The position numbers and the translations under genes were made by a program. From contig NW_026852804.1 in NCBI RefSeq assembly GCF_026571515.1, positions 1-64,000 on the forward strand: DNA of 64,000 nucleotides. Reading direction: 5' to 3'. This DNA is from Ruditapes philippinarum. Lineage: Eukaryota. Below, one piece after another: positions 3,001 through 55,600 of this stretch; the first letter of the stretch is position 1, and each line of letters starts with the position of its first letter. Below the pieces are notes generated by a model. It was not told the origin of the DNA. It saw only the letters and a program-made list of their open reading frames with translations, and did not search any database.

Positions 3001-6000
3001 ATATATATTATATTTTCACTGATTCACTGATAGAGATCATTTCATAAATATAGCCAATTCTTTTGGTTTTCTAAATGTGGGTTGTAGTGTGAAGAATCAG
3101 AATAAACATATGTCATACGATAAATAAAAACAGTTTCTGAAATGATATATATGTAAGTGATTATTCCATCATGAATCAAAATTAAAACAAAATGTTAAAA
3201 TACATGTTGATAAATAATTTGATACTTTTAAATACAATGAACATGTGATTCAAAGTTCAAATCATTTCATCAGAATTTATGTATCGTTTTATTCACCCAG
3301 GTTTTCTCGAACTAAAGTTTAAATTTGCATATCTGCTAACAGTAAACATTTTAACATATAGATTATATATTTATATAAAGGAATATATTCCTGTAATAAA
3401 ATAATCACATCATACATTATATATATTTTTTGTTCAGTTTTGTAATATGAAAACTTAAAACAAAACTCTTCTTCAGATTATTTCTGAAACAGATAAAACA
3501 TGCATAAAAATGTTGAAAAGAAACAGGCGATATTTTGTAAAAGGCCTTATCTGTTCTGACAGTCGACCATCGATCTGTTTATAATGTGGTAAGATGGCTT
3601 CCAAAAAATACAACTAATTAAGTTTTGTGTCTAAAAAGTGTTTCTTTCGCATTGCTGATATAAGACCCTCTAAAAGGAAATATTTTCTTGCAACTGGGAA
3701 ATGTAGCGAATTGCAGAGAAGGAAATCTTCAGTGACATGCAAGTGTCACCCTTCTTTCCTTGACTATTTGAAGAAAAAAATCTTATTACAAAAATTCTTT
3801 TATTTAGGAACACGCAAGCTATTCATGGGACTTGCATATTAATCAAGTATTTATAACAAATAATTGCCTACCGACTGCGTAGATGTTGAAGTTAGAAATT
3901 TAGTTCGCTTACCGAAACACGAAAGGTTCGTTTAGAAACACATTTATCATAAAGGTTTTCCATAGTTCAAGATAAATGATCTACACGAAATAATAATGAC
4001 ATGCAAGCAATGCTCACATTTCTCTATGACATTGCATGGAAAACTAAGAACTATCATATGTAAGTTAACCAGTTTAACTTCGGTCGAGTATCCTTTTTTT
4101 AAAAATATTCTTGTTTAGGATTTTCTTGGTTTGATTGCTGAGTATTGCAGCGTCTTGTCCTTGTTTCGTCCTTGTGCCTTACTTAGTTCCGTGTCGGTAG
4201 TCCGGTATGCTGGTTTTGTTATGTGCTACATTTGAAAATGCCGTCTTTCTTGGTGATAATCATATTTTAATCAATTAAAGAGAAAAACTGTTTATAAAGC
4301 AAGAAATATAAGATCAATGTCAGTGCATGTCGAGTAATAAAAGACCAATCCTATTTCAATGTTATTTTACTTGTAAATAGTATATGCACGGTGTCAAGGG
4401 TATACGCATCATTTTTCCGCGTACCGCCGATAATTTATCATCCTATGCGCAACACCGTATCATTCTTACGTAATCTTCTGAAAAGTGCAAGAGGTCAATT
4501 CAAAAATGCGAAAATTTCTTACTAAAATTGATTTTATTTAGAGAGTTTGCATACATCACGGAAGTTTTGAATCATTCATCTATGTGTACAAAACATTTTG
4601 TAACAATATTTGTCTGTTATAACCCGAAACTAATGAAAACACTTTTTTACATGTGAAACATTTGTGATCTTGATGCAAACATTTTTTTATCCTTTTCCGA
4701 AAGTAAAGCTGTCGGAAGAAGTATAATAATTCAAATGATAGCAAAAGAATTGACCCGAGCTGATAACATACCAATTTTATACAAATAATGCAAAATAATG
4801 TTGTGAAATCAAGAAAACTTTGATAAACATGGTACCGCATCATGCAGAACCATGGCACCGCTTCTTTTTGCGCGGTAATACTTTTTTTCTTGGGGGAGGG
4901 GTTGGGTATTGCTAATTTTTATTGTAGGATTGACAAGAAGAGGTAGATGTTGGCTATCGGTTAGGGTAAGCGGGGCAGTGGATTACCTGGGCCTGGAAGC
5001 AATCTGGACCTCTACAGTTGTTTTTAAAGATAATTTCTTGTTAAAAATGTATGTTTTCGTAGCAGTTGCATTTTATGTCTTTTGTGAGGTTGAACTTTTC
5101 TTTGGACTAGGGAATTGCATAATATTTGCAGATTTCAGTAATGGAAATTTTACTCTCAAATTTGTTAATACATCACACAAGCAAGTCAAAGCTCATATTT
5201 CTAAAATGGTATTTCTTTTTACATTTGAATTTTAGTTACTTAACTAATTGACTTGGCACATAACGTACGCATTGTTAAGGTGGCAACTATGTATGGTGCT
5301 GATTTGGTACATTTGCGCGTTTCGTTGTCGATAGTGACGACGCAAAATATATATTTTTTTCGCCTTTTCGTCTTGTCGCTAGCGACAATACCAAACGGAG
5401 CGTTGTCGCGCTGTTGTCTTGTTGTCCTGTCTCTAGCGCGGCACCCAAAACGGCGCGTTGTCGTGCGGCGTGTTGTCACGATGTCACATTGTCGCTCGGT
5501 TCAAATTATAGGAATTGGCTTATAAGCCAGCGACAGAGCGACATCGCGCCGCACGACAACGCAGTTTGGCGTGCCGCGCTAGAAACAGGACCACAAGACG
5601 ACAGCGCGTCGTTTGGCGCTTTGTCGTGTTGTCGCTAGCGCCAGGACGACAAGACGAAAGTAGGACAATGCGATGTCGCCCTGTTCCTTGGCTTATATTA
5701 AGCCAATTCTTCGATTGAACCGAGCGACAATATGACATCTACGGAATGCCGTTAGGGCCATTGCCTATGAATGTGTTGATCTGAAACGCGATAGTCGATA
5801 GGACGATGGTGAAAACGCGAAATCACGAAACTACGATGGTGAAAATGCGAAAGCACGATGATGAAAACGCGAAAGTACGATGATAAAAACGCGACAGTGC
5901 GATACTACGATGATGAAAGCGCGATAAACTATCGTGTTTTCACCATCGTACTGTCGCGTTTTCACCATCGTAGTTTCGTGATTTCGCGTTTTCATCATCG

Positions 6001-6595
6001 TACTGTCGTGTTTTCATCATCGTACTATCGCGTTTTCACCATCGTACTATCGCGTTTTCACCATCGTACTATCGCGTTTTTATCATCAGTAGTATAGGCG
6101 TCGGTTTGGCGCCACGACTGCGCATGCGCGGCGCCATATTGGATTCTATTTTTAGAATGACATCATCGTTCTATTTTAAGAATGTGATCATCCGTCTATT
6201 TTTAGAATGACATTATTGTTCTATTTTTAATCTCCCGGAAGTATACGGAGCTGACTCGTATACACGATTTAGGGCTTGAATCGCGGACATTGAGGGTCAG
6301 GTCCTCGGCCCTAGACGGAGAGATAATTACCATTATGAAGATAAAAGAAATGTTTGTAAATAGATACGTACTTAACATTTTAAATTTAAAAAACAAATAG
6401 TTTTTTTAATATGTTCAAAAAATAATATTGATACAAATATAACTCGTTTACTTACCTACATTTAGTAAGGAAATGACTGTCATAGCGTAATGTTCTTGTA
6501 GACTGCGCATGATCTATTTTTAGTCGCGGTATTTCACAACCACCAGGAGCTATTTCATCAGCCCCACGCGGGTGTCAATGAAAGAAAAAGGCATT

Positions 6596-6999
6596 AAGTA
6601 CAGTCGCCGCTCAGTCTAGATTCACAATACCTAGCGGAACTATTCTGAACAAAAACCCTTTATCCTTCGTTACTAAATATAACTTTTCATTAATCACAAA
6701 AGAATCTATTATCCTTTCAAACGCAGCGACCGTCAAGTACAGTCGCCGCTCAGTCTAGATTCACAATACCTAGCGGAACTATGTTGAACAAAAACCCTTT
6801 ATCCTTCGTTACTAAATATAACTTTTCATTAATCACAAAAGAATCTATTATCCTTTCAAACGCAGCGACCGTCAAGTACAGTCGCCGCTCAGTCTAGATT
6901 CACAATACCTAGCGGAACTATGTTGAACAAAAACCCTTTATCCTTCGTTACTAAATATAGCTTTTCATTAATCTTATCCTTTTAAATGCAGCGACCATT
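6596..6999 (+). repeat. 139-bp tandem repeat, 3 copies in the left arm (2 copies in the right arm, about 11485-11719)
   Basis: Unit starts AAGTACAGTCGCCGCTCAGTCTAG at 6596, 6735 and 6874. Confidence 0.95.
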
Positions 7000-9095
7000 A
7001 AGTAAAAACTCATTAACGAGAAATTGCTACGCATGCATTAACATATTTTAACACTTCATATATTGTACCGTTCCTTTTAAGTGCATGCTACGGTAAACTG
7101 ATTGCATATTTTAAACACGGTTGCCCTTAGCAACTGGTCAAATTTTGTGATTTTTATGAACACTTCAGATTCTTATTTTTTATACAAAAATAAATTTTAA
7201 ATGAATACACTTATGTATAAGAAAGTTGTAAACTGATTTTAAATGAAATTTATAATACACTTAAGCTATAAACCGGTTTTTCATCGTTTGGGCAACCGTT
7301 TACGCTCAAAATTTTTGAGATAAAGTCGTTATAAGATAGAATAAACCGAAAGCTTTCGTTTTGACCCGGGGTTCTCGATTCGATTTTCAGCCGTTTTTGA
7401 GTTATGACGCAAGAGCGATTTTAAACCCTAAATTGCGAAAGTCAATAAAAACGTTAGAACTTTTTACCAATCGATTCGTCTCGTCGCGCTGATTAAGAAA
7501 ATATATAGTTTTATGGGTTTATCTTTTACCGTTTTCGAGTAATTCGAGTTTAAAGTCACCGGAAGTGACGTCACAGAAATTTCAAAATCGATTTTTTCCG
7601 TTATTACTTGACCGAATATATACCTTGTTTGGTATCGTTGGAAAGCATTTTACCACACCTGTTACCTGACGCTATTCAAAAAGCCATTGGACCGGAACTG
7701 AAATCACTGAAGCGTAAAAACGTGTTTTCTGTACCACGTCCGGACCGAACTAAGGCGTGTTTGGTATCAAACGAAATGTCTTAAGCCGCTCTTTATGAAT
7801 ACGGACTAAAATCGAAATTAAAATCACTCATGCGTAAAAATCATTAAAATAACTAAAATAAGCTTACCCCCAGTCTTTACTCCTTGCCTATCAAACTATT
7901 TATGACAAGTTACTATAGCCTATCGTTAAACGGTCCAGTTACGACAGGTTTAAACCGGTATTGCTATTTTTGATTAGCCAATGAAATTGAAGAACGAGGT
8001 TTTTAAACCATTTTTTTTAAAGTTCATAAAACCCTTAGATTTATATGCCGTTTGAAAGATCTCTGCGAGTAGATACAGAAAATGTATTATTATATGGATC
8101 TATCTTTTACTGTTTCTGAGATAGGAGAGTTTCAATATGGCAGACAAAATCACTCATGCGGAAACACGCGCATAACTTTTTCGTTTATGAACGAAACATA
8201 GTTATGTTTGGTATCAAATTGAAGGTCTTGACGAGTACATTTTAGTCACGCGATCAAACCGGATGTGAAATCACTCATGCGTGAAAAATATATATTTTGG
8301 TTACTAGAGCAACCAAATACGATATGATTTTTTAATTGTTGACTACCAATTGAAAGAACAGTTCAATACCTTTAATTTACACCCCACATTATCGATTCGA
8401 TTTCAACTGTTACAGAGTTATTACGTAACAGCGATTTTTTAAACCCAAATTTTTCAAAGTTTACAAAACCCCTTAATTTATATACCGTTAAAAAGATCTC
8501 TACGAGTAGATTCAAAAAATGTATAAGTTTATGGGTCTATGATTATGAGTTACTGAGATATTACAGATATAGACTTAGTGTATTTTAACCACCAATGTAA
8601 GATAAAGCGTTATTGCACTACATTGTTCAAAAATATTCAAACGACTGTGGTGTTCTTATTTATGGGTCGATTTTATCCATCTTGGTATCAAATTAAAGGT
8701 ATTTAAGAGTACTTTCAGACGCTGTTGATAGTAAAGTTCATACTGGAAGTCAAAATCACTCATGCGTTAAATGACAATTCTCCGCTTATTTCTGGACATA
8801 ACATGGGTATGTTGCATATCAAACGAAAGGTCTTGACAAATGCGACAAGCTGAAACTAACAAACCGCAAGTGAAACCAATCACGCGTAAAAATCATTAAA
8901 ATAACTAAAATAAGCTTACCCCCAACCTTTACTCCTCGCTATCTAAATCGGCAATGAATGAATCGCTACGGTTAATCGTAATAAATGGAGTAAAAGAAGC
9001 GTTCGGATTGGTCACTGATAAGACAGTATTCTGATTGACTCGAAAGCAGGTTGGACAACCGTTCCTTGCAATGTGTAAAAATACATAAAACAAGT

Positions 9096-9320
9096 GAGGA
9101 GGAGGAGGAGGTGGAGGAGGAGGAGGTGGAGGAGGAGGAGGAGGAGGAGGTGGAGGAGGAGGAGGAGGAGAGGGGAGAAGGTGAAGAAGGTGGAGGAGGA
9201 AAAGAAGAAGCAGGAGGGGTAGGAGGTGTAGGAGGAAGAGGAGGAGGAGGAGGTGGAGAGGAGGAGGAGGAGGAGGAGAGAAGGAGGGGAGGAGGAGGAG
9301 GAGGTGGTGGCGGAGGAGAA
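9096..9320 (+). repeat. (GGA)n purine-rich low-complexity tract in the palindrome spacer
   Basis: Long imperfect GGA run. It explains the poly-E/G/P/S ORFs in the track. Confidence 0.95.
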
Positions 9321-12300
9321 GGAAAGGAATTTTTTTCCTGTATCTGCAAACGTAAGAATCGTTAAATAAACTTGTAAGAAGGCAGATTTCTTCGGCTTTT
9401 ATAAATCTTGCTACTAAAATGAATAAGTGTTCACCACCACCGCCACCGCCATCACCACCACCACCACCTCCTGCTTCTTCTTCGAACGCTTCTTTTACTC
9501 CATTTATTACGATTAACCGTAGCGATTCATTCATTGCCGATTTAGATAGCGAGGAGTAAAGGTTGGGGGTAAGCTTATTTTAGTTATTTTAATGATTTTT
9601 ACGCGTGATTGGTTTCACTTGCGGTTTGTTAGTTTCAGCTTGTCGCATTTGTCAAGACCTTTCGTTTGATATGCAACATACCCATGTTATGTCCAGAAAT
9701 AAGCGGAGAATTGTCATTTAACGCATGAGTGATTTTGACTTCCAGTATGAACTTTATTATCAACAGCGTCTGAAAGTACTCTTAAATACCTTTAATTTGA
9801 TACCAATATGGATAAAATCGACCCATAAATAAGAACACCACAGTCGTTTGAATATTTTTGAACAATGTAGTGCAATAACGCATTATCTAACATTGGTGGT
9901 TAAAATACACTAAGTCTATATCTGTAATATCTCAGTAACTCATAATGATAGACCCATAAACTTATACATTTTTTGAATCTACTCGTCGAGATCTTTTTAA
10001 CGGTATATAAATTAAGGGGTTTTGTAAACTTTGAAAATTTGGGTTTAAAAATCGCTGTTACGTAATAACTCTGTAACAGTTGAAAATCGAATCGATAATG
10101 TGGGGTGTAAATTAAAGGTATTGAACTGTTCTTTCAAATGGTAGTCAACAATTAAAAATCATATCGTATTTGGTTGCTCTAGTAACCAAAATATATATTT
10201 TTCACGCATGAGTGATTTCACATCCGGTTTGATCGCGTGACTAAAATGTACTCGTCAAGACCTTCAATTTGATACCAAACACGACTATGTTTCGTTCATA
10301 AACGAAAAAGTTATGCGCGTGTTTCCGCATGAGTGATTTTGTCTGCCATATTGAAACTCTCCTATCTCAGAAACAGTAAAAGATAGATCCATATAATAAT
10401 ACATTTTCTGTATCTACTCGCAGAGATCTTTCAAACGGCATATAAATCTAAGGGTTTTATGAACTTTAAAAAAATGGTTTAAAAACCTCGTTCTTCAATT
10501 TCATTGGCTAATCAAAAATAGCAATACCGGTTTAAACCTGTCGTAACTGGACCGTTTAACGATAGGCTATAGTAACTTGTCATAAATAGTTTGATAGGCA
10601 AGGAGTAAAGACTGGGGGTAAGCTTATTTTAGTTATTTTAATGACTTTTTACGCATGAGTGATTTTAATTTCGATTTTAGTCCGTATTCATAAAGAGCGG
10701 CTTGAGACATTTCATTTGATACCAAACACGCCTTAGTTCGGTCCGGACGTGGTACAGAAAACACGTTTTTACGCTTCAGTGATTTCAGTTCCGGTCCAAT
10801 GGCTTTTTGAATAGCGTCAGGTAACAGGTGTGGTAAAATGCTTTCCAACGATACCAAACAAGGTATATATTCGGTCAAGTAATAACGGAAAAAATCGATT
10901 TTGAAATTTCTGTGACGTCACTTCCGGTGACTTTAAACTCGAATTACTCGAAAACGGTAAAAGATAAACCCATAAAACTATATATTTTCTTAATCAGCGC
11001 GACGAGACGAATCGATTGGTAAAAAGTTCTAACGTTTTTATTGACTTTCGCAATTTAGGGTTTAAAATCGCTCTTGCGTCATAACTCAAAAACGGCTGAA
11101 AATCGAATCGAGAACCCCGGGTCAAAACGAAAGCTTTCGGTTTATTCTATCTTATAACGACTTTATCTCAAAAATTTTGAGCGTAAACGGTTGCCCAAAC
11201 GATAAAAAACCGGTTTATAGCTTAAATGTATTATAAATTTCATTTAAAATCAGTTTACAACTTTCTTATACATAAGTGTATTCATTTAAAATTTATTTTT
11301 GTATAAAAAATAAGAATCTGAAGTGTTCATAAAAATCACAAAATTTGACCAGTTGCTAAGGGCAACCGTGTTTAAAATATGCAATCAGTTTACCGTAGCA
11401 TGCACTTAAAAGGAACGGTACAATATATGAAGTGTTAAAATATGTTAATGCATGCGTAGCAATTTCTCGTTAATGAGTTTTTACTTAATGGTCGCTGCAT
11501 TTAAAAGGATAAGATTAATGAAAAGCTATATTTAGTTCCGCTAGGTATTGTAAATCTAGACTAAGTGGCGACTGTACTTGACGGTCGCTGCGTTTGAAAG
11601 GATAATAGATTCTTTTGTGATTAATGAAAAGTTATATTTAGTAACGAAGGATAAAGGGTTTTTGTTCAAAATAGTTCCGCTAGGTATTGTGAATCTAGAC
11701 TGAGCGGCGACTGTACTTAATGCCTTTTTCTTTCATTGACACCCGCGTGGGGCTGATGAAATAGCTCCTGGTGGTTGTGAAATACCGCGACTAAAAATAG
11801 ATCATGCGCAGTCTACAAGAACGTTACGCTATGACAGTCATTTCCTTACTAAATGTAGGTAAGTAAACGAGTTATATTTTATAAATATTATTTATTTTGA
11901 ACATATTAAAAAAAACTATTTTTTATAAATTAAAATGTTAAGTACGTATCTATTTACAAACATTTCTTTTATCTGTCATAATGGTAATTATCTCTCCGTC
12001 TAGGGCCGAGGACCTGACCCTCAATGTCCGCGATTCAAGCCCTAAATCGTGTATACGAGTCAGCTCCGTATACTTCCGGGAGATTAAAAATAGAACAATA
12101 ATGTCATTCTAAAAATAGACGGATGATCACATTCTTAAAATAGAACGATGATGTCATTCTAAAAATAGAATCCAATATGGCGCCGCGCATGCGCAGTCGT
12201 GGCGCCAAACCGACGCCTATACTACTATCATCGTACTGTCGTGTTTTCATCATCGTACTATCGCGTTTTCACCATCGTACTGTCGTTATTTCATCATCGT

Positions 12301-13629
12301 ACTATCGCGTTTTCATCATCGTACTATCGCGTTTTCACCATCGTAGTTTCGTGATTTCGTGTTTTCACCTTTGTACTTTCGACTATCGCGTTTCAGATTA
12401 ACACATTCATAGGCGATGGCCCTAAGGTCATTCCGGAATGACGTTAGGACCATCGCCTATGAATGGTTTGATCTGAAACGCGATACTCGACAGTACGATG
12501 ATGAAAACGCGAAATCACGAAACTACGATGGTGAAAACGCGACAGTACGATGGTGAAAACACGATAGTTTATCGCGTTTTCATCATCGTAGTATCGTACT
12601 GTCGCAATTTCATTATCGTACTATCGCGTTTTCATCATCGTGCTTTCGCGTTTTCACCATCGTAGTTTCGTGATTTCGCGTTTACACCATCGTACTATCG
12701 ACTATCGTGTTTTAGATCAACACGTTTATTGGCGATGGCCCTAACGGCATTCCGTAGACATCGCAACAACACGCCGCACTACAACGCACCGTTTCGCTAG
12801 CGCCAACACGATACACAAAGGTGTTCCAAATCAGCCACAATAGTAAGAAGACACTTTTAAATAACCGTACTTTCCACATGGATTAAGTGCAGTTGAAATA
12901 TACGGTGTCCTTCCTGGACAATTAAAGGACAGCTATTGACATGCTCGATTTTTTCTTGAAGTTTTGTCCGCCTTTCTGTATTTTTATAGATAAAGTAGCA
13001 AGATTTTACCATTCTCGCAAAATACTTTTTCGCGCCATTCAACATTGAATTTGTCGAATAGTTGAACTTTAAACAAGAGATTTAGTCAATCTTAACAGGC
13101 GATATTAAACTGCCTAAAACTGGACACTATAGAAACCGATGGACAGTAGTGCGCATCTCATGAAAGTATCCAGTTTATCGAGAAATTGGATGGCCATTTC
13201 CAGGACCAAAGTAACTGATGATTTTAGCATTGACAAAACTAACAGTTGTTCGTTGGAAGATGGTACAGCACTTAGTTTTTTTTTATATCGTCTGACATTC
13301 TATAAAAAAACAAACATTAACCGTGACATTTACTGTACCCACCGGCCCACACATCAAACAATCAACTGCCATAAACGGCTGAACATTGCGTTAAGGTAAG
13401 CATGTGAATAAGGAAACTACTAAAAAAAAGATATAATCCAAATAACATTGACGCAAAACAAGTTAGAGACGATTTCAATGTTGACTGACATACTCGATTT
13501 TAGTAAAATTTGACATTCTGCTAATTGATGACAATTTCAGATTTTTGCTCAAGGAAACATGGCGCCTCGACAAGCGATGCCAGAATTCCAAGTCCGCCGT
13601 TTCAGTCCTTTGCTAGAAGAAATTACATC

Positions 13630-23554: not shown

Positions 23555-23698
23555 TGCAGTTAGATGCCAAAGAGACAGGACGTCAGCATGCCTCCTAAAC
23601 AGCACAGAAATCGTTACAAGTGCACGATATACAAGGCTCAGGTTGTTAAAATATGAAAAACAAGATCAACAAGGAAAGGCGGCGTTGAATGAACGCAC

Positions 23699-25635
23699 AA
23701 CATAGATAAATACAGAATCCCTAAAGAAAGCCCAACACGGCAAAATTGAAAATGTTGCAGGCTCGGTTTGATTGAGCCTGTTCATGGACGGTATTGGAAA
23801 GTGCAAGTTACCGTCCACGCCCCCTAGCACCGGCTTAAGCAGAATTCAACATTTAAACATGAAATAGTAAAATTTTGAATTTAGAAATATCCGCAGATGT
23901 GTTCATACGGCGGTCCATCATGGAACTTCAATGTGACACTTCCGTGTCATTCCATGAAAAGCGGCGTATGGTCCCCAAGTAATAAAAAGCGTGTGCCCTA
24001 AACGAGAAAACAATGGGCGGAACGAAATAAAATGGAATTTTGAAAAGGGGATCTGAGATTATGAAGCCTGCATATCACAGACAAGACGTCAAAAGACAAA
24101 TTTTAAAAAGCAGGCAACATATCCTAAGGGTGATTCAACATTATTCAAGTAGGAATATTGGAACCACCCAACTAGAAAATGCCGAAAAGTTGAAATTAAA
24201 AATACCACAAGCACAACAATAATGTCGTGCTGAACGATCTTCAAGGATCGAAAATATAACATCATTGATTAAATGTACGGGGAGACTTTTTACAGCCGCC
24301 ACACGGCACAAATAACACGGATGTGATCATAACATAGATAAATACAGAATCCCTAAAGAAAGCCCAACACGGCAAAATTGAAAATGTTGCAGGCTCGGTT
24401 TGATTGAGCCTGTTCATGGACGGTATAGGTCACTCAACACATTAGAGGCCAACACATGCACCAGCTAGGGTCCGAGCAAAAGTGTCAGCTCCGGGGCATT
24501 TCTCCTTAATTGGCGAGAAGTTCGTGGTCCTAAACGTACGGTACTATAAACTGCGTCCTGTGTTGGAGTGCCAAAAAATGTTGACAGATATACCGCGGCA
24601 CTTAAGAGATGTCCATTCCATCTCGCGGATGGAATGTAAGCACGGAAGCGACCAGGATATGCAATCTCGATTGGACAATTCCACAAGAGGGTTCCATGAT
24701 AACCGCCGTATGAACACATCTGCGGATGTCTCTAAATTCAAAATTTTACCATTTTCGTGTGACATTTCGTGTTACCATTTTCGTGTACCGTCCATGAACA
24801 GGCTCAATCAAACCGAGCCTGCAACATTACAATTTTGTCGTGTTGGGCTTTCTTTAGGGATTCTGTATTTCTCTATTTTATTGTCACATCCGTGTTATTT
24901 GTGCCGTGTGGCGGCTGTAAAACGTCTCCCCGCACATTTAATCAATGATGTTATATTTTCGATCTTTGAAGATCGTTCAGCGCGACATTATTGTTGTGTA
25001 TACATTTTACATGGTATTTTTAGTTTCTTGTATTTGGCCTTTTTCAATTTGGGTGGTTCCAATATTCCTACTTGAATACTGTTTAATTACCCTTAGGATA
25101 TGTTGCCTGCTTTTTAAATTTGTCTTTTGACGTCTTATCATCCCCTTTCAAAATTCCATTTTATTTAGTTCCGCCCATTGTTTTCACGTTTAGGGCAAAC
25201 GCATTCTTTTACTTGGGGACCATACGCCGCTTTTCATGGAATGACACTACTGTGTCACATTGAAGGTTCCATGAAAACCGCCGTATGAACACATCTGCGG
25301 ATGTTTCAAAATTTCACCATTTTAGTGTTTAAATGTTGAATTCTGCTTAAGCCGGTGCTAGGGGGCGTGGACGGTAACTTGCATTTTTCAGTACCGTCCA
25401 TGAACAGGCTCAATAAAACCGAGCCTGCAACATTTTCAATTCTGTCGTGTTGGGCTTTCCTTAGGGATTCTGTATTTCTCTGTTATGTTGAATTCTGCTT
25501 AAGCCGGTGCTAGGGGGCGTGGACGGTAACTTGCACTTTCCAGTACCGTCCATGAACAGGCTCAATCAAACCGAGCCTGCAACATTTTCAATTTTGTTGT
25601 GTTAGAATTTCTTTAGGGATTCTGTTTTTCTCTAT
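23699..25635. repeat. Cluster of a structured dispersed repeat family: about 630-bp units with terminal direct repeats, arranged as an inverted pair
   Basis: 23699-24426 is a diverged reverse complement of about 24786-25482; extra tandem end at 25486-25635. Hairpins TGGACGGTA..TACCGTCCA and CAGGCTC..GAGCCTG. Further copies at about 42165-42250, 51270-51420, 52299-52362 and 52992-53205. Confidence 0.85.
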
Positions 25636-26998
25636 TTTAGAGAGACAAGAGTTTAGAGACCCGTATCCGTCGAGCGCGGAAAAAAGGAGAGTTGCGGATC
25701 AACAGAAACGACTTGATTCGTCAAGTTTAAGGTAGGTTTCAGTTCAAATTTACTCTTGAGCATTGAAAATAAAGAATACATTCATTACTATCTCAGAAAT
25801 TATCGTAATAAAAATTTCATTAAAAAAAAAAAATTAAATTAAATATCTAAAGTGTGTATAAGATTAGCCTTTTTTCAAAATAAAATTAATTAAATATTTC
25901 AAAGTAGAATAAGAACTTAAATAATAACAACATTTTACATCTTCCAGGTCATCTTCCCGTTCCAGGAGATCCGCCCGTTCCAGGAGATTCTCCCGTTCCA
26001 ACAGATCCAGGAGAGAAAGAAGAATGCGGCCAGACCGGTCCAGGTCAACCTTACGAGGGCAACATTCAAGATCCAGGTAGGTTCATATTTAATATAATGT
26101 ACAATCGTCGTAATTTCAACAGCAATAATAGACACTGGAGTGATGAAATTATAATAATAATGCACACTGGTTACAAGGATGGCATAATAATACATACATA
26201 TATACATACATACATACATAACGGCTCAAGTCCAGACTGGTGAAAATAATGGTAAAATACATAATAAATACATCAAAATGCATAAATTTCAGATCTTCGA
26301 GTTCTTCAACTGTCTGAAAAGGTAGCAGCCCTAACAGTGGACACTCACAACAAAGGTAGGTTATATTTTGCACATATTTATACTAATTACATAAGACTTT
26401 GTTCGGGTTTCTACTAAAATCCCTTATTGTCGTTACAGTCCTTTGTTTGTCGGGTAAGTCCCTCTTGTCGTTAGGGTTATGAGACGCTTCCAAACAGCAA
26501 ACACTTCCAAGGACTTACCCTAACAGGCCTTTTACAACATTGCTCATGGGCAGCGTTACATACATGCATACATACATGCATACATACATACAAACATACG
26601 TACATTCATTACTATCTCAGAAGTTAATATAATAAAAATTTCAGTAGAAAAATTAAAATAAAAATTAAAAATCTAGTCAGTATTAGGGTAGACTTTTTAA
26701 ATAATAAAATTACTAATTGCAGGAGAATAAGAAATTAATAACAACATTCTATATCTTCCAGGTCACCCTCCCGTTCCAGGAGATCCTCCCGTTCCAGGAG
26801 ATCTTCCCGTTCAAGTTCCTCCGTTCCAGGAGAGACAGATGGTCACTCACATCACCCACACGACAATCACATTCAAGATCATGGTAGGTTCAAATTTAAT
26901 TTAATGTATTGTGCGTGTAAATATACATTCGTCTATAATAGACACTGGAGATAATGACATTATTATAATACACACTGGTTAGAATGTTGGTTTAATAA

Positions 26999-27191
26999 NN
27001 NNNNNNNNNNNNNNNNNNNNNNNNNNNNNNNNNNNNNNNNNNNNNNNNNNNNNNNNNNNNNNNNNNNNNNNNNNNNNNNNNNNNNNNNNNNNNNNNNNNN
27101 NNNNNNNNNNNNNNNNNNNNNNNNNNNNNNNNNNNNNNNNNNNNNNNNNNNNNNNNNNNNNNNNNNNNNNNNNNNNNNNNNNNNNNNNNNN
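26999..27191. other. Assembly gap (N run)
   Basis: Run of n. Confidence 1.
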
Positions 27192-27881
27192 TTTCTGTCA
27201 GTATAGTCACTGAAATTGTTGCGTTAGTCCCCGATTGTCGTTAGCGTCCGTACCGAAGTCCCTGATAGTCGTTAGAGTCCTTAATTTATCGGTGAAGTCC
27301 CTGAAACTGTCGGTTAAGTCCCTCTTCTCGTGAGAGTCCCTGTCATGTCGGTTTAGTCCCTCTTGCAGTTAAGAGTTATGAGTGCTTCCTTACAGCCAAC
27401 ACTTTCAAGGTCTTGCCATAACAGGACTAGAGTTATAGTCCTTTTTTGCCGCTATAGTCCAGACTGGTGTGAATGATGGTATAATATACAAATTGAAGAG
27501 AAAGAGGATATAATAATACACACTGGAGACAGGGAGAGAGGATACCATTATACACACTGTAGAGAATAAAACATAAATACATCATATTGCATAAATTTCA
27601 GATCGTCAACTACCACTTCTTCGAGGACAAGTTCTTCAAGAGTTGTCAGATGTAGAACCAGCCCTAAACCTTGACCTTCGCAACAGAGGTAGGTTATATT
27701 TTGTACATATATATACTAATAGCACAAGACTTTGTTTGGGGTTCTTCTGTAGTCCCTTATTGTCGTTACAGTCCTTTGTTTGTCGGGTAAGTCCCTCTTG
27801 TCGTTAGGGTTACGAGACGATTCCAAACAGCAAACACTTCCAAGGACTTACCCTAACAGGCCTTTCACGACATTGCTCCTG

Positions 27882-28058
27882 NNNNNNNNNNNNNNNNNNN
27901 NNNNNNNNNNNNNNNNNNNNNNNNNNNNNNNNNNNNNNNNNNNNNNNNNNNNNNNNNNNNNNNNNNNNNNNNNNNNNNNNNNNNNNNNNNNNNNNNNNNN
28001 NNNNNNNNNNNNNNNNNNNNNNNNNNNNNNNNNNNNNNNNNNNNNNNNNNNNNNNNNN
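27882..28058. other. Assembly gap (N run)
   Basis: Run of n. Confidence 1.
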
Positions 28059-28656
28059 TTTTTTGTCGGTTAAGTCCCTATAGTTGTAGATTTAGTCCCT
28101 CTTGTCGTGAGAGTTCCTGTAATTTTCCGTTTAGTCCTGCGTGTCGTTAGTGTTAGGAGAGGCTTCCAAACAGCCAACACTTCAAGGGACTTACTCTAAC
28201 AGGCCTTTAACGGCACTGCTTCTGGTCATTGTTACATACAACCATACATACATACAACCATACATACATACAAGGGTTGGGGTTAGTTTCTAATACTATT
28301 TGATTTAAGCTCGATTGTGAATGAATCAAGCAAGCATCACTGCTTCACTTTACGTATTTTTCATGTTGTAGGACTCGCCTCCTCGACGATATTCGCGAAT
28401 CTATGCGTCTTGAAATTGTTCGCAAATATCATGGTGGTCAGATGGCTGATGACGCATCAAGCAACAGACATGGCTCTTCAACCAACTCCCCGGAATAATG
28501 AGCGTGTTGAACAGGGAGAAGAAGGTTCGGGCGAATTATTTGTATTCAAATGAGATGAAGCGGGTCAAAGCGCTACTTAACCTTGAAGACTTCCATGAAA
28601 AGCCTGAAGTCAAAGAGGCGATTTCCAATTTGTCTACACACCCTACGCCATACAAT

Positions 28657-49680: not shown

Positions 49681-52600
49681 ATGGCAACAATACCTTTCTG
49701 CCCGCTGACATTGCCTAACGGGCCTCTCGCGCGCATCGGATACCGGAGGTTTGGTAATAAGTTATAATGTTTAAAAACTATATTTTAGTAATTGATTTGT
49801 CTGGCATAAAAAGTAAAAATGACATCCAACTGCGGGTGATATAACAAAATGATCACAATTGGTCAAGATAATATCCAATCCAGATAACGTCTTGGTTGAC
49901 ATCACTTGTCTTGGGTAATCATCTCGTTCCATCAACCTCAATGGGATGTGATATTTATATAATATTGAATAATTGTTGTTTGTCATGGGTCATCTTTGCA
50001 GACGCATAAATTGCTTAAGATAATTTTCTGTTGATAACTTCTAGGATTGATGGTTTCCTTCAGTTACATGTACATAGCTATGTGAGCTTTTGTCTTGAAG
50101 AAATGCGAGAATAGAAAATAAAGAAATAATTGCACGTTATATTTTGAAAACCGAAATATATAAACACTATATTACAGTTCCAAAGTGTTCATATTTGATG
50201 ATAGTAAATACTGTTACATGAAATCAATGCAATGTTTTTTTCAATGTATTAAAGCAAAAATAAATTATTTAAGGAGGATAAGCGAGATACAAGAATGTCG
50301 ATTTCAACCGTGATATTAAAAGCAAGTATTGTGGGGATTGCATTCATTGAACGCCGCCTTTTCTTGTGGATCTTGTTTATCATATTTTAAGCAAAACACA
50401 CACTATTTTGCTAAAACGTTCGTATAACAAATTAAGAATATGCAATGATGATACTAAATATACAAATCATATTTTTTGGGGGAAAATAAAAACAATAAAA
50501 ATCCTAAACATAGTTTCAAAGGAACAGCAAATTAATTGATCAATCATACTTTAGCTTTATATACTAATGTAATAGATGCCGCTCCTTGACGCACATCTTA
50601 TTTAAATGGTTCTTGTTTCAGTCCGATAAAAAAGAAAGATCAAAAGGTAATGTTTATTTAAACATTTATTGAAAGTTTTAGTGCCTGATCAATGTACCAA
50701 ATGTTGCATGAAAATATATCGACTATGACTGCGTGCTTTAAGCCTTTATAACATTTTATTACATATTTTGACTTGCATGATATTCCAGAATTATTTTATG
50801 TTATATCGTTCGTATGTATTTAAATATTCTGTTGGTTATACTTTATTTTACTTATTGCCTCATGTCCAGTGCTATAAATAATGTACTGAGAGAATATTGC
50901 TGCTGTACACGAAATGTCTACAGACATCTTAATTAAAGGTCATCCGTAAAGATACATTTATCACTTGAAATAGTTATTTACTTTCACTGACCATGGCTCT
51001 TTAGTAAAAGTAAATGCTAAAAGCACAATTCAATTTGATTAAATGCTAAATATGTACAATTTCAAGATGTGTTTTCTCTAATATCTGAATAGTCTAGAAA
51101 CATATTAGTCAATGATAAATATGTCAACTAATACAAAACCTTGAGGAGCAGTAGAGATGAATGTTTTCTTAAAACACATTAAAAATTTAAAATTGTTTAT
51201 AACTCTGTGCAAAATTGTATTGTTGTACTGAAAATAAAGACATTCTAAATTTTACAAGTTCATGTTAAATGCTGAATTCTGCTTAAGCAGGCGCTCAGGA
51301 CGTAAACGGTAGCTCGCAATTATCACTACCGTCCATAAACATGACTCGATCAACCTGAGCTTGCAACATTTTCATTTTTTTATGCCGTTTTGGACTTTTA
51401 TAGGGATCCTTGTTTATTCTATCTTCATGTATAACGTGTATGCAATAGTTTCAATACAGTTTTATACGGTTATATCTCATTTAATCATTTATGCCTTTAA
51501 ATATGTAGTTCATTATATGAAAAAAATAGGTCAACAAGGTAAAGGCGGCGTTCAATGATTGCAACTTTAGATTACAAAAGATTTTTTTCAAAAAAATGTT
51601 TAATGAATTTAATATTTAGAACAACTTTCATATAACATTCTACCTAATTTTGACAAGAAACAAACTAAATGAGACAAACAATGCAAAATCATTCACAAAA
51701 TGACATTATTACCTGTCCTGACACCATCTTAAAGTCTTTAATTTATACTTTTTTCCTTATTTTGTTCAATGTTTTTGATGGAGAAATATGAAAAAAGAGT
51801 GTGATATACTAACAATCAGCTAATAGGTACGTTTCTGTATCACTGACAACATGGACTGCACCTATGTCTTTTTCAATTATTAAACATTCCAATTCGCATA
51901 AGCATGTTATAACAGTATTGCAACAACTGATATCCCTACAATGGAAATATGCTGGTAATTACTGTGTACAATTTGGGCATAATACTCGACATACCATTTG
52001 CCACAATATGTGAATAAACAGACAGGTAACGGATTGCAAGAAACATATTTTTACCATTGAATCATTAACAAATTTCACTAGTACAAATACCATGCATAAT
52101 GTTGCAGCTTCAAGCGAAATTTTCGCCGCAAATTGAAACAGATAAGCACATTTTCATTAATTTTTTACTTAAATGTGACGTTGGAAAAATCAGACTAATG
52201 ATATCTTTAAATTGAACTTGTTCAGATATGTTCGGCGGCCTTTTTAGCCAGAGGAATTAACTGGTACATTTGTTGTGTAACCTTGGTGATAAATGTAATC
52301 CCTAAAGAACGCCAAAAAAAACAACAACGACAAACTGAAAATGTTACAGGCTCGGTTGATTGAAACAAAAATATTAATCGGGTGATGTTAAACGAAAGTT
52401 GCCATTTTCAAAGAAAGTTAAAGTAGATCAACGGATCATGTTGCAATTTTCATTGCAAAGGATTGTCTAGCATTCCTAATATACAAACATAAGAAATGGA
52501 GACGCAGATGTGTCAAAACATAATAGAATTCATAGAAACATATAAATATATTTATATTTCTAGATTTAAAGAGACACTTACCACTCAGGCAGACGCTATT

Positions 52601-55600
52601 TCTATGTTAGATAGTATGGAAAGAATCTCATTTTCAATTGCGTCACCAATCAATCCGTTTCCAAATATATTTAGTTACTTGTTTTCTTAAAAAGACATGC
52701 TATCTTCATACAGTTCGTATGACAATGAAAATGTACACTAAGGGATTTCGTTTTTCTCTATTTTTGTGTTATAGCTAATGTTATTTTTTACATTTATTGA
52801 TGTCTGGTGAAAATACCTGCTTTTCTATGTTTGCATACTTTAACTATATTAAATTAAAACTATATAACAAAATTTATTGTGTAACAGTAAATGAAAGCTA
52901 CCGTCAAAGCTCCTTGGCACCAACTCACACTGAATATAAACTAGTGTTGAACAAGACAGTTTCAATCAGGTACATGCAAGAACAGTAAAATAGAGAGAAA
53001 TAAAGAATCCCTAAAGAAAGCCCAACAAGACAAAATTGAAAATGTTGCAGGCTCGGTTTGATTGAGCCTGTTCATGAACGGTAATGGAAAGTGCAAGTAA
53101 CCGTCCACGCCCCCTAGCACCGGCTTAAGCAGAATTCAACATTTAATCAAGGTAATGGTGAAATTGTGAATTTAGAAACATCCGCAGATGTGTTCATACG
53201 GCAGTTATCACTGCTTAATCGGTTCAATTGTCATAGGATTAATTAAAATGACCCTTATTAAGTTAAAAGAAATCTACGAACACTTTGCATGAAATTCTGT
53301 AAATGGTACATGTATGGCCAATTCTCAGTGCAGCAATTATTTTGCAAACATATACTGGTATACACAAAACTAATAAAGGTAGATAACGTTATTGTGTCCT
53401 AATAATATACTGTATTATATATATGTATATATTTAAAAAAAGTCTTTTCCATATTTCACCTGTAATATAAGGCATGCAGAAAACTGTTTTTAGCATACTT
53501 ATGAATATATCTGCATTTGCTGTTTGTGCTATGGCACAAAAAATTAATTAAACGTCGCAAAAAAGGAATTAAGCAAAAACGGATGCTTCAGTAAGTATGT
53601 GTATAATGAATCATCGAACTAGAAGCCCTACTAACGATATGCATTAATATGAAATATATCAATGTAATATTCAAGTCCACCATTGTAGGGGTTGCCAGCT
53701 AAACCTTAAACATATTTTATTCTTCTTCGACAGAGGAAAAGAGCTTGAAACATACTCAAAACCCTCTGACGAACCGCAATATTTATGTTAAAGGCAAACC
53801 AAACGGCTTTTAGAACATCAACCTTATTTCATCTATATGTACCACTTAAATAACAGTAATTGCGTAAGCCAATATAACCATACAAACGATGTAGTAAATT
53901 TGTTTGTTTTCATTATAAAGAAAAAGGCCAAAATTCGTAAACACATGTGACTCAAATGTAATTAATCAATTGATACTACTAATCATCAAAAGCAGGAAAC
54001 CTATTTTACGATATTTCATTAACGAGGACAAGATCAATGCACTACAGTATGTCAGAGCATGCCTTATATCAATTAAATTCCACAGTCAAGTAATTCTTTA
54101 CATGCAATATACGTGATAAATTAATGCTACTGTAATTGAAGATTAAATAGGAACATTATCGGTATTTACTTAAAGACAGCAAATACGCAGAACTAAGTCA
54201 GCATATTGTGGTAGTCTGATTTTTGTATACAATAATTCAGACAGGAGGTATGCTCAACAATACTTTACAATCTATAGTTTGAAAATAAAATAAAAAAAAA
54301 GTTTCGGTAAAATGTATTCATGTTTCATAGTTGTACCATATATACAGGAGCCAGTGGAGGATGCAACAACCAAAATCAAGAAAAGGCTTAAAGGCGGTGC
54401 ATGGGAGCAAACAAAGACGCCCCAACTGCATAAATATTATGAACCCTGTTAAGTCATAATTCTCATATAGTTATTTCCCACAATTCGTTACCTGAAAAAG
54501 CATACAGTTTTTGTTCGTTTTATGTTTCTGAGTGGATAAACTTATTTATATATAGAAATGATATTCGATAATTTTACAGTGAAAATTATCGAAATAAATT
54601 TAAATCTATTATTTTCTATAATATCAATCGCAATGAAATATATCAAACTTATTTTAATTCGCTGATCACATCGTTAAATTTTCATTCATGATAACAGTCT
54701 AATGATTGGGTTTTACCCCACACCAACACAGTATAAGTTTCGAATGTATTTTCCCCGATTACATGCTAAGTAAGTTTAAGTGTCCTACGAGCAACAATTA
54801 TGCAACAAATGTAATGCTTATAGTGGGCACAAAGACATTAGTAAATAACCGAATTTTTGCCCTAGTCTTTTCTTAAATGCAATAACAGTCATAATTTATT
54901 GTGATTAATAATCCTTGAATTAGTTTTCCCGTTCTTTTCAATAGGTGTAAGATTAACAAATTCAAAGAATATCAGTTAAATTAAACACATGCAATCATGT
55001 TCACCGAGATTTCACGGGTAAAGACTTATTTTGTAAATAATATCATTGCCATCTAATGTTCATTATTGAATTGTTTAAGCTCAAGTCAACTATATTTTAA
55101 AAGGTCCTCACAAATTGAAGCTCCAAGAGAGGAAAACAAATCTTATAAGTACATGCCATATTGAAGAAATGTGATTCAAACACGTTATTGAGCATACGAA
55201 CAAAAATATTTGTGTTGTTGTGTAAGATGTAATTTTAGTTTCATCTTGTAAGCTACGCACCTCGTACGAATACCTTTTTGAAGCTTACTCAATGTAATTA
55301 AATTTCATATTACAAAAACGCCAAATACTCTCGGGTTCGTCATATAAAATTAATCTCATCATTGAATTTAAAAATAAAATGAAAGAATAAAACAAATAAA
55401 AAATAAATTAATAAGTTATTACGATTCAAATCTAAATGGTTTAGTATCCCCATGATGCCGAGATAAATGTTATCGTCTTTGTTATTATAACATTAGGAAG
55501 TTATTTTACTTATTTCACGTTTGAGAGTAATAATACAACATTATGAATAATTAAAATCATACAACAATAAACGCCATGCTTTAATTGTGATTACTGATAC

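Follow-up and report, generated by a model that had tools for sequence, protein, structure and literature searches.

A foldback element with Polinton-type tips and no detectable gene in the genome of Ruditapes philippinarum

Architecture of the element and its insertion scar

We analysed a 64,000-nucleotide stretch of the Ruditapes philippinarum genome (NCBI RefSeq assembly GCF_026571515.1, contig NW_026852804.1, positions 1 to 64,000 of the forward strand), hereafter the window, which is repeat-rich and about 30% GC. At positions 6088-12226 it holds an insertion of 6139 bp, 92.2% of which is made up of two inverted arms. The left arm (6088..9005, forward strand; 2918 bp) is non-coding and modular and opens with the tip AGTAGT; the right arm (9483..12226, reverse strand; 2744 bp) closes with the tip ACTACT at 12226; and a spacer of 477 bp (9006..9482) lies between them. 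Global alignment of one arm against the reverse complement of the other yielded 2718 matches and 20 substitutions, or 99.27% identity, along with 12 small gaps, several of which fall in single-letter runs, and a single gap of 172 bp inside a 139-bp tandem array.

The insertion is bounded by two copies of a target-site duplication (TSD), ATCATC, at 6082..6087 on the left and 12227..12232 on the right. Of the 11 end registers tried, only one (AGTAGT/ACTACT with ATCATC) combines an inverted match at the termini with a duplication in the flanks, and the duplications at this tip register are of 3 bp and 6 bp only. Excision in silico of the element and one ATCATC copy left the 22-bp register of the surrounding host repeat unbroken again. 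An initial annotation of this DNA had described arms of 2918 and 2744 bp around a 477-bp spacer, an inverted repeat covering about 92% of the element, and AGTAGT termini with an exact 6-bp TSD that restores the host repeat—a description borne out by the global alignment and by the register and excision tests. Shifted end registers, including the TA register of IS3EU-type elements, were rejected; no duplication is present at the inner TA register.

Within the arms, the outermost segment is a terminal block of 251 bp (6088..6338, forward strand) with zero arm-to-arm substitutions, comprising the (AGT)2 tip, a GC-rich box, and a 25-bp tandem repeat present in 3.4 units at 6144-6229. It ranks with the deepest of the element's bins in the public runs aligned below (mirror 12003-12224), and is a likely replication origin and integrase site. 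The terminal 253 nt of the element fold as a single strand with a z score of -2.8. Further inward lies the 139-bp tandem array (6596..6973, forward strand), with 2.7 units in the left arm and 172 bp less in the right; contigs of one public run (X8) show a back-joint of 139 bp, the length of an array unit. The inner part of the arm (7330..8950, forward strand) consists of degenerate modules, 68-86% alike in pairwise hits, which fall into three of type A (about 7330-7570, 7960-8140, and 8345-8600) and five of type B (about 7600-7730, 7740-7900, 8185-8300, 8660-8790, and 8795-8950), continuing up to the inner end of the arm. Part of module A (7330-8600) may resemble the conserved core of DINE-1/Helentron-associated elements. 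The single-strand fold of the element's centre is the palindrome again and nothing further. A self-BLAST of the element against the 64-kb window (E 1e-3) returned zero matches outside 6088-12226.

Coding content

The initial annotation had called the element gene-less, and frame shuffles, Pfam, and homologue searches all agree with it. In the left arm, stop-free frames run to 71 codons at most, against a mean maximum of 93 in shuffled sequence, and 192 of 200 shuffles equalled or exceeded this length. Frames of more than 100 codons occur in the element only across the spacer's 3-mer tracts; one of these, a low-complexity open frame of 216 codons (8929..9579, reverse strand) that extends from the right arm through the spacer, is without a homologue and is probably not a gene. 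Open frames cross both arm–spacer borders.

For a 71-aa spacer frame that starts in the right arm, no homologue was found among longer or similar-length proteins, among 1.84 billion representatives, or in the Atlas, nor was one found among longer proteins for a 55-aa outward-facing spacer frame; with no homologue for either piece, we rejected the spacer frames as the remnant of a Polinton gene. The Pfam scan covered 138 of the 258 stop-free frames of at least 52 codons, including 18 out of 30 overlapping the element, with frames starting in the right arm omitted as mirrors. No cut-off was reached in the 138 frames scanned, and of five weak hits, the sole one within the element was to proline-rich PRIMA1 (19.7 bits against a cut-off of 38.6). 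Thus pPolB, integrase, capsid, ATPase, and protease are all lacking among the 18 element frames compared with Pfam, and Rfam gave 0 matches over 5000-13500. As a separate observation, proline-coding tracts on both strands lead away from the centre and continue in frame to an identical 24-codon end within each arm; these outward frames may be due to chance in low-complexity DNA.

Copies in public sequencing runs

Public sequencing runs were searched by words with the left arm and spacer as the query. Among the 24 runs listed, 20 contain this sequence or part of it, and 14, from 8 studies and possibly including the source sample as one, hold 0.60-0.64 of the query words. RNA runs contain 0.06-0.23 of the words (the upper value in a run labelled mollusc metagenome) and one presumed-RNA run 0.48, from which no expression is inferred.

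Contigs of four runs from four studies (X2, X3, X4, and X8) were then aligned to 9006-12330 at an 85% setting, with the 3-mer repeats at 9087-9327 and 9427-9486 left out—a bin of zero depth at 9117-9227 lies in the former. The four runs contributed 12391, 3593, 4982, and 1769 aligned contigs, with every identity class filled (99+, 95-99, 90-95, and under 90%). For arm-identical contigs, depth goes up to 4309 in X3, against 32-37 for the lowest listed contigs of that run, and to 169-376 in X8, against 5-7. At the unique spacer site 9394, depth exceeds the lowest listed depth by 64-117x in X4, 31-36x in X3, 50-58x in X2, and 9-13x in X8. Both unique ends of the spacer are multi-copy, the left being deeper than the right in three of the four runs. 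Relative to the inner arm, the spacer (9394) has a depth of 0.62-0.88 in X4, 0.22-0.61 in X3, 0.36-1.08 in X2, and 0.45-0.57 in X8; the values for X3 and X8 loosely agree with two arms per spacer. Contig joints that skip 592-1057 bp between internal repeats, together with loose ends, indicate relatives with another module order, although some of these joints may be cross-matches between modules at the 85% setting. Since the arm and both spacer ends are multi-copy in all four runs, with relatives of other module order, the element belongs to a family rather than being a one-off, and it is likely one of tens of copies.

Run X2 stands apart in its depth profile. The segments 9006-9116, 9450-9671, and 10560-11225 are far deeper relative to the tip than in X3, X4, and X8, with a ratio of the 10560 bin to the tip bin of 4.6, against 0.17-0.78 in the other three runs. 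X2 is also the only one of the four runs to show the 1057-bp skip joint and to have a loose end at 9028. The excess depth could come from amplification of a subfamily with short arms, from free DNA, or from an effect of the library.

Arm-to-arm copying

The variable sites in these alignments allowed the two arms to be compared with their relatives. From the 40 sites listed out of 152, a spacer site and a flank site were dropped, leaving 38 arm sites. At 32 of them, both arms carry the same letter against another letter in relatives; at the remaining six, the arms differ, the other letter of the runs being that of the left arm. Among the 32 shared-letter sites, the other letter predominates in every one of the four runs at 14; at a further 10, it does so in three. 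The clearest cases are seven sites at 9843-9973, where the other letter accounts for 71-100% in every run. At least one difference between the arms, at 9889, is polymorphic among relatives, for which reason arm divergence is not used to date the element. A letter common to both arms but not to most relatives implies copying from arm to arm at some point in the lineage, after its separation from those relatives. The copying agent may have been panhandle replication or repair.

The spacer and a possible fold-back scar

The spacer comprises an 81-bp unique start, a purine-rich 3-mer tract (9096-9323), a unique core of about 100 bp, and a second 3-mer tract (9432-9468). A 16-nt segment within the purine tract (9202..9217, forward strand) has its exact reverse complement at 9467-9482, directly adjoining the inner border of the right arm. 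In Markov resamples of the tract, the 16-nt word was present in 2 of 20000 at order 1, 0 of 20000 at order 2, and 360 of 20000 at order 3, the order-3 model having been trained on a tract that itself contains the word. This inverted match is possibly a fold-back priming scar or the relic of a once longer arm.

The initial annotation had further proposed that the element is a copy-back defective genome made by template switching during protein-primed replication and integrated in trans by a helper integrase, as a satellite or defective-interfering parasite of a Polinton virus. This interpretation is partly supported: besides the real insertion with Polinton-type tips and a 6-bp scar, the lack of any gene found, and the multi-copy family, the 16-nt match fits a fold-back start, and arm-to-arm copying is what a panhandle replicon would give. 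Against it stand a diversified family in place of a fresh one-off and arms that are non-coding and modular and vary in module order, with no trace of a copied Polinton gene.

Comparison with known elements

Autonomous Polinton/Maverick elements (PMC8097293, PMC10748475) share with the present element (AGT)2//(ACT)2 tips, a 6-bp duplication, and long terminal inverted repeats (TIRs); in vertebrate Mavericks this end motif and a 6-bp TSD are the commonest, with (AG)3//(CT)3 also occurring (PMC8097293). They differ in carrying pPolB, integrase, ATPase, protease, and capsid genes, none of which was found here, and in their size of 12.7-24.6 kb against 6.1 kb. The arms of 2.7-2.9 kb likewise exceed the TIRs of 46-1447 bp described for vertebrate Polintons, and the element apparently sits in a large diversified family, unlike the mostly low-copy vertebrate Mavericks. 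The statement in the initial annotation that Polinton TIRs are usually below about 1.5 kb holds for the vertebrate and nematode surveys, but TIRs of about 2 kb are reported in butterfly polintons. On gene content and size alike, the element is not an autonomous Polinton; it works in the manner of a non-autonomous derivative, for which it is a candidate.

An 'N' in a Repbase family name denotes a non-autonomous family. Zebrafish has such Polinton families—Polinton-1N1_DR (15,469 bp), -2N1_DR (11,092 bp), and -4N1_DR (10,436 bp)—with 1874-5744 copies or fragments (PMC9341512); by name and length, the only features compared, the present element is about half as long as these or less. An anole survey reports no non-autonomous Polinton copies. 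Butterfly polintons (bioRxiv 10.1101/2025.02.07.637071) resemble the element in being mobile without a polB of their own and in having TIRs of more than 1.5 kb, whereas they keep virion genes, some within the TIRs, and none was found here.

Structurally, the element is a foldback transposon. Like Tetris, Galileo, FB, and the sea-urchin and midge foldbacks (PMC4079207), it is non-autonomous, has long, modular, repeat-bearing TIRs and a short middle, and occurs in rearranged forms. Its arms are longer than those of Tetris (up to 1,735 bp; PMC4079207), and foldbacks are mostly Mutator-class, with duplications of 8-10 bp in Tetris, in contrast to the 6 bp and Polinton tips seen here (PMC4079207). 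IS3EU/GingerRoot elements also make 6-bp duplications but end in TA..TA, occasionally TG..CA (PMC10045372), as opposed to AG..CT in the present element. A further parallel is offered by the subgenomic molecules of phi29 and the copy-back defective genomes of RNA viruses, which are end-derived, helper-dependent, and stripped of genes while keeping their origins; these are transient and extrachromosomal, whereas the present element is integrated, inherited, and diversified. In the full-text literature searched, which covers few subscription papers and no Repbase reports, we found no report of gene-less, near-fully palindromic elements with Polinton ends. Non-autonomous Polinton families as such are already known in zebrafish.

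Proposed mechanism

We consider it probable, at roughly 0.6, that the element belongs to a gene-less foldback family with Polinton-type tips, replicated and inserted by an autonomous Polinton/Maverick of the same genome. The copy at hand is an insertion with (AGT)2/(ACT)2 tips, a 6-bp duplication, and no gene found. Its tips would very probably be recognised by the retroviral-like integrase of the helper, which would insert the element; we infer a Polinton integrase because (AGT)2//(ACT)2 with 6 bp is the commonest signature of vertebrate Mavericks, and the IS3EU and Mutator alternatives fail. With odds only slightly in its favour, the excised single strand would fold into a 2.7-kb panhandle, on which the protein-primed polymerase of the helper would start at the doubled AGT tip. 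Folding of a displaced Polinton strand into a panhandle is part of a model restated in PMC4046053, and phi29 offers precedents in the terminal reiteration used for jumping-back (PMC4974454) and in template-switch subgenomic molecules of 1-8 kb (PMC4974454, citing Murthy 1998). The arm-to-arm copying observed above could then be the work of panhandle replication or repair. More tentatively, and at somewhat less than even odds, the palindrome would have been born as a fold-back template switch in an ancestor of the family, with the 16-nt match as its scar. The variants observed among relatives suggest that modules were gained and lost through recombination between internal repeats. Putative competition with the helper is a doubtful final step.

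A broader version of this scheme appears rather unlikely: animal Polinton satellites as a class of fold-back-born, gene-less hairpins that keep both protein-primed origins, replicate as giant panhandles at the expense of the helper, integrate in the germ line, and outnumber the helper. The class would recur across animal phyla, and the present element would be a small, independently evolved member of it and a natural record of Polinton replication in animals.

That Polintons replicate and form virions in animals is concluded from their genes, and particles have not been observed (PMC8097293). If a tips-only, gene-less family with arms kept in step is indeed still spreading, it would mark out the smallest set of cis-acting ends, speak for panhandle, protein-primed copying in germ-line DNA, and serve as a multi-copy marker for finding an active helper. 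Foldback architecture would then have a source in a self-synthesising, virus-like superfamily as well as in the cut-and-paste superfamilies. Where near-perfect palindromes several kilobases long occupy many loci, they are, in addition, likely sites of rearrangement and hairpin RNA.

Several observations weigh against this reading. The 16-nt match lies in a low-complexity setting, where order-3 resampling recovers it in 360 of 20000 cases, and the right arm lacks the 196 nt at 9006-9201, so that a fold-back at the match requires either another slip or a deletion afterwards. Homogenisation of the arms can equally be explained by gene conversion, which has been invoked for Tetris; some of the 32 shared-letter sites are in internal repeats and may be cross-aligned, and they derive from the 40 of 152 variable sites that were listed. 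The modular arms themselves resemble ordinary foldbacks, which are mostly Mutator-class. As to copy number, the ratio of spacer to arm depth is scattered (0.22-1.08 over 12 values), summed contig depth does not measure the number of copies, and the lowest listed contigs served as a rough guess at single-copy depth. No contig crosses the 3-mer tracts, and longer, even autonomous, elements with the same ends could supply part of the depth. The insertion scar is known from one copy, no helper was seen, and exact-pattern scans for the tip and arm motifs gave 0 matches in viral_contigs and metagenome_contigs, which carry little weight, not being animal genome collections.

Alternative explanations

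The palindrome could have arisen with no copy-back at all, if a Polinton with native TIRs of 2.7-2.9 kb lost everything between two low-complexity tracts. The butterfly polintons, with TIRs of about 2 kb, make such an ancestor conceivable, the purine tract is a plausible deletion joint, and the multi-copy spacer ends (deeper on the left than on the right in three of four runs) and the open frames across both arm–spacer borders would fit such a loss. Yet surveyed TIRs measure 46-1447 bp in vertebrates and 100-1500 bp generally, the long butterfly TIRs bear genes while none was found in the present arms, the spacer frames have no homologue, and the many relatives of other module order are unlike the mostly low-copy vertebrate Mavericks. 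We regard this origin as unlikely, and if true, it would make for a modest finding. Gradual elongation of the TIRs, as in other foldbacks, may also stand in for copy-back. Such lengthening after loss of the transposase is central to a different account, in which a cut-and-paste foldback of another DDE superfamily carries Polinton-like tips by coincidence. Modular TIRs of great length, tandem repeats inside them, and rearranged forms are just what PMC4079207 describes for foldbacks, and the element is nested among palindromic MITEs (miniature inverted-repeat transposable elements), one of which has its own 6-bp duplication. This account is nonetheless improbable given the exact (AGT)2//(ACT)2 tip with a 6-bp duplication, which is the Maverick signature; Mutator-type foldbacks such as Tetris make duplications of 8-10 bp, and the TA..TA ends of IS3EU/GingerRoot are lacking.

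The two remaining explanations would make the palindrome young or unreal. A Polinton virus might recently have given rise to a copy-back genome that integrated a single time and was not amplified into a family. Such an origin would accord with the 99.3% arm identity, the 16-nt match at the border, and the phi29 precedent; it is very improbable in the face of arms and both spacer ends that are multi-copy in four runs of four studies, with many diverged relatives, and of an arm that is non-coding to its inner end. Least credible is an assembly or library fold-back. No read or contig seen spans both arms, and several small gaps lie in single-letter runs, but such a fold-back should yield identical arms and no scar, whereas the arms here differ by 20 substitutions and a 172-bp stretch of array, the mirror symmetry reaches precisely to the tips and no further, and the host register is restored by way of the duplication. 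At the six listed sites where the arms differ, the letter of the left arm is also found in other runs.

Genomic setting and further features

The element interrupts a palindromic host MITE of 872 bp (5740..12756) with 22-bp units and TA..TA tips, IS3EU/GingerRoot-like in its ends, which is flanked by its own 6-bp duplication, GACATC, at 5734-5739 and 12757-12762. Around this MITE there is apparently yet another palindromic repeat, GC-rich and located at about 5300-5733 and 12763-12810, which makes three levels of nesting. The ratio of observed to expected CpG is 1.53 in the arm (6088-9005) and about 2.4 in the host MITE, compared with 0.8-1.0 elsewhere, and 5 of the 12 transitions between the arms fall at CpG.

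No host gene was recognised in the window: the 120 longest frames outside the element all remained below the Pfam cut-off, with 108 shorter ones falling outside the scan. Two N runs (26999-27191 and 27882-28058) lie between the duplicated segments 26256-26596, 27565-27881, and 28062-28272, and this region, about 15 kb from the element, is a locally unresolved part of the assembly. A second foldback-like element lies in 23698-25639, with arms at 23698-24425 and 24786-25490 that are 86% alike and tandem units of 152 bp; related pieces lie at about 51240-51425 and 52986-53210.

The terminal region of the Polinton-tipped element (6120-6525) also contains short boxes that resemble binding motifs. 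A MEF2-type box has five matches there, three of them within the 25-bp repeat; counted on both strands, it occurs 10 times against a shuffle mean of 0.5, a number reached in 0 of 500 shuffles. The same region has one NRF1-type and one YY1-type box, the latter not significant (37 of 500 shuffles). By analogy with adenovirus ends, we would guess that these could be host-factor sites beside the putative origin.

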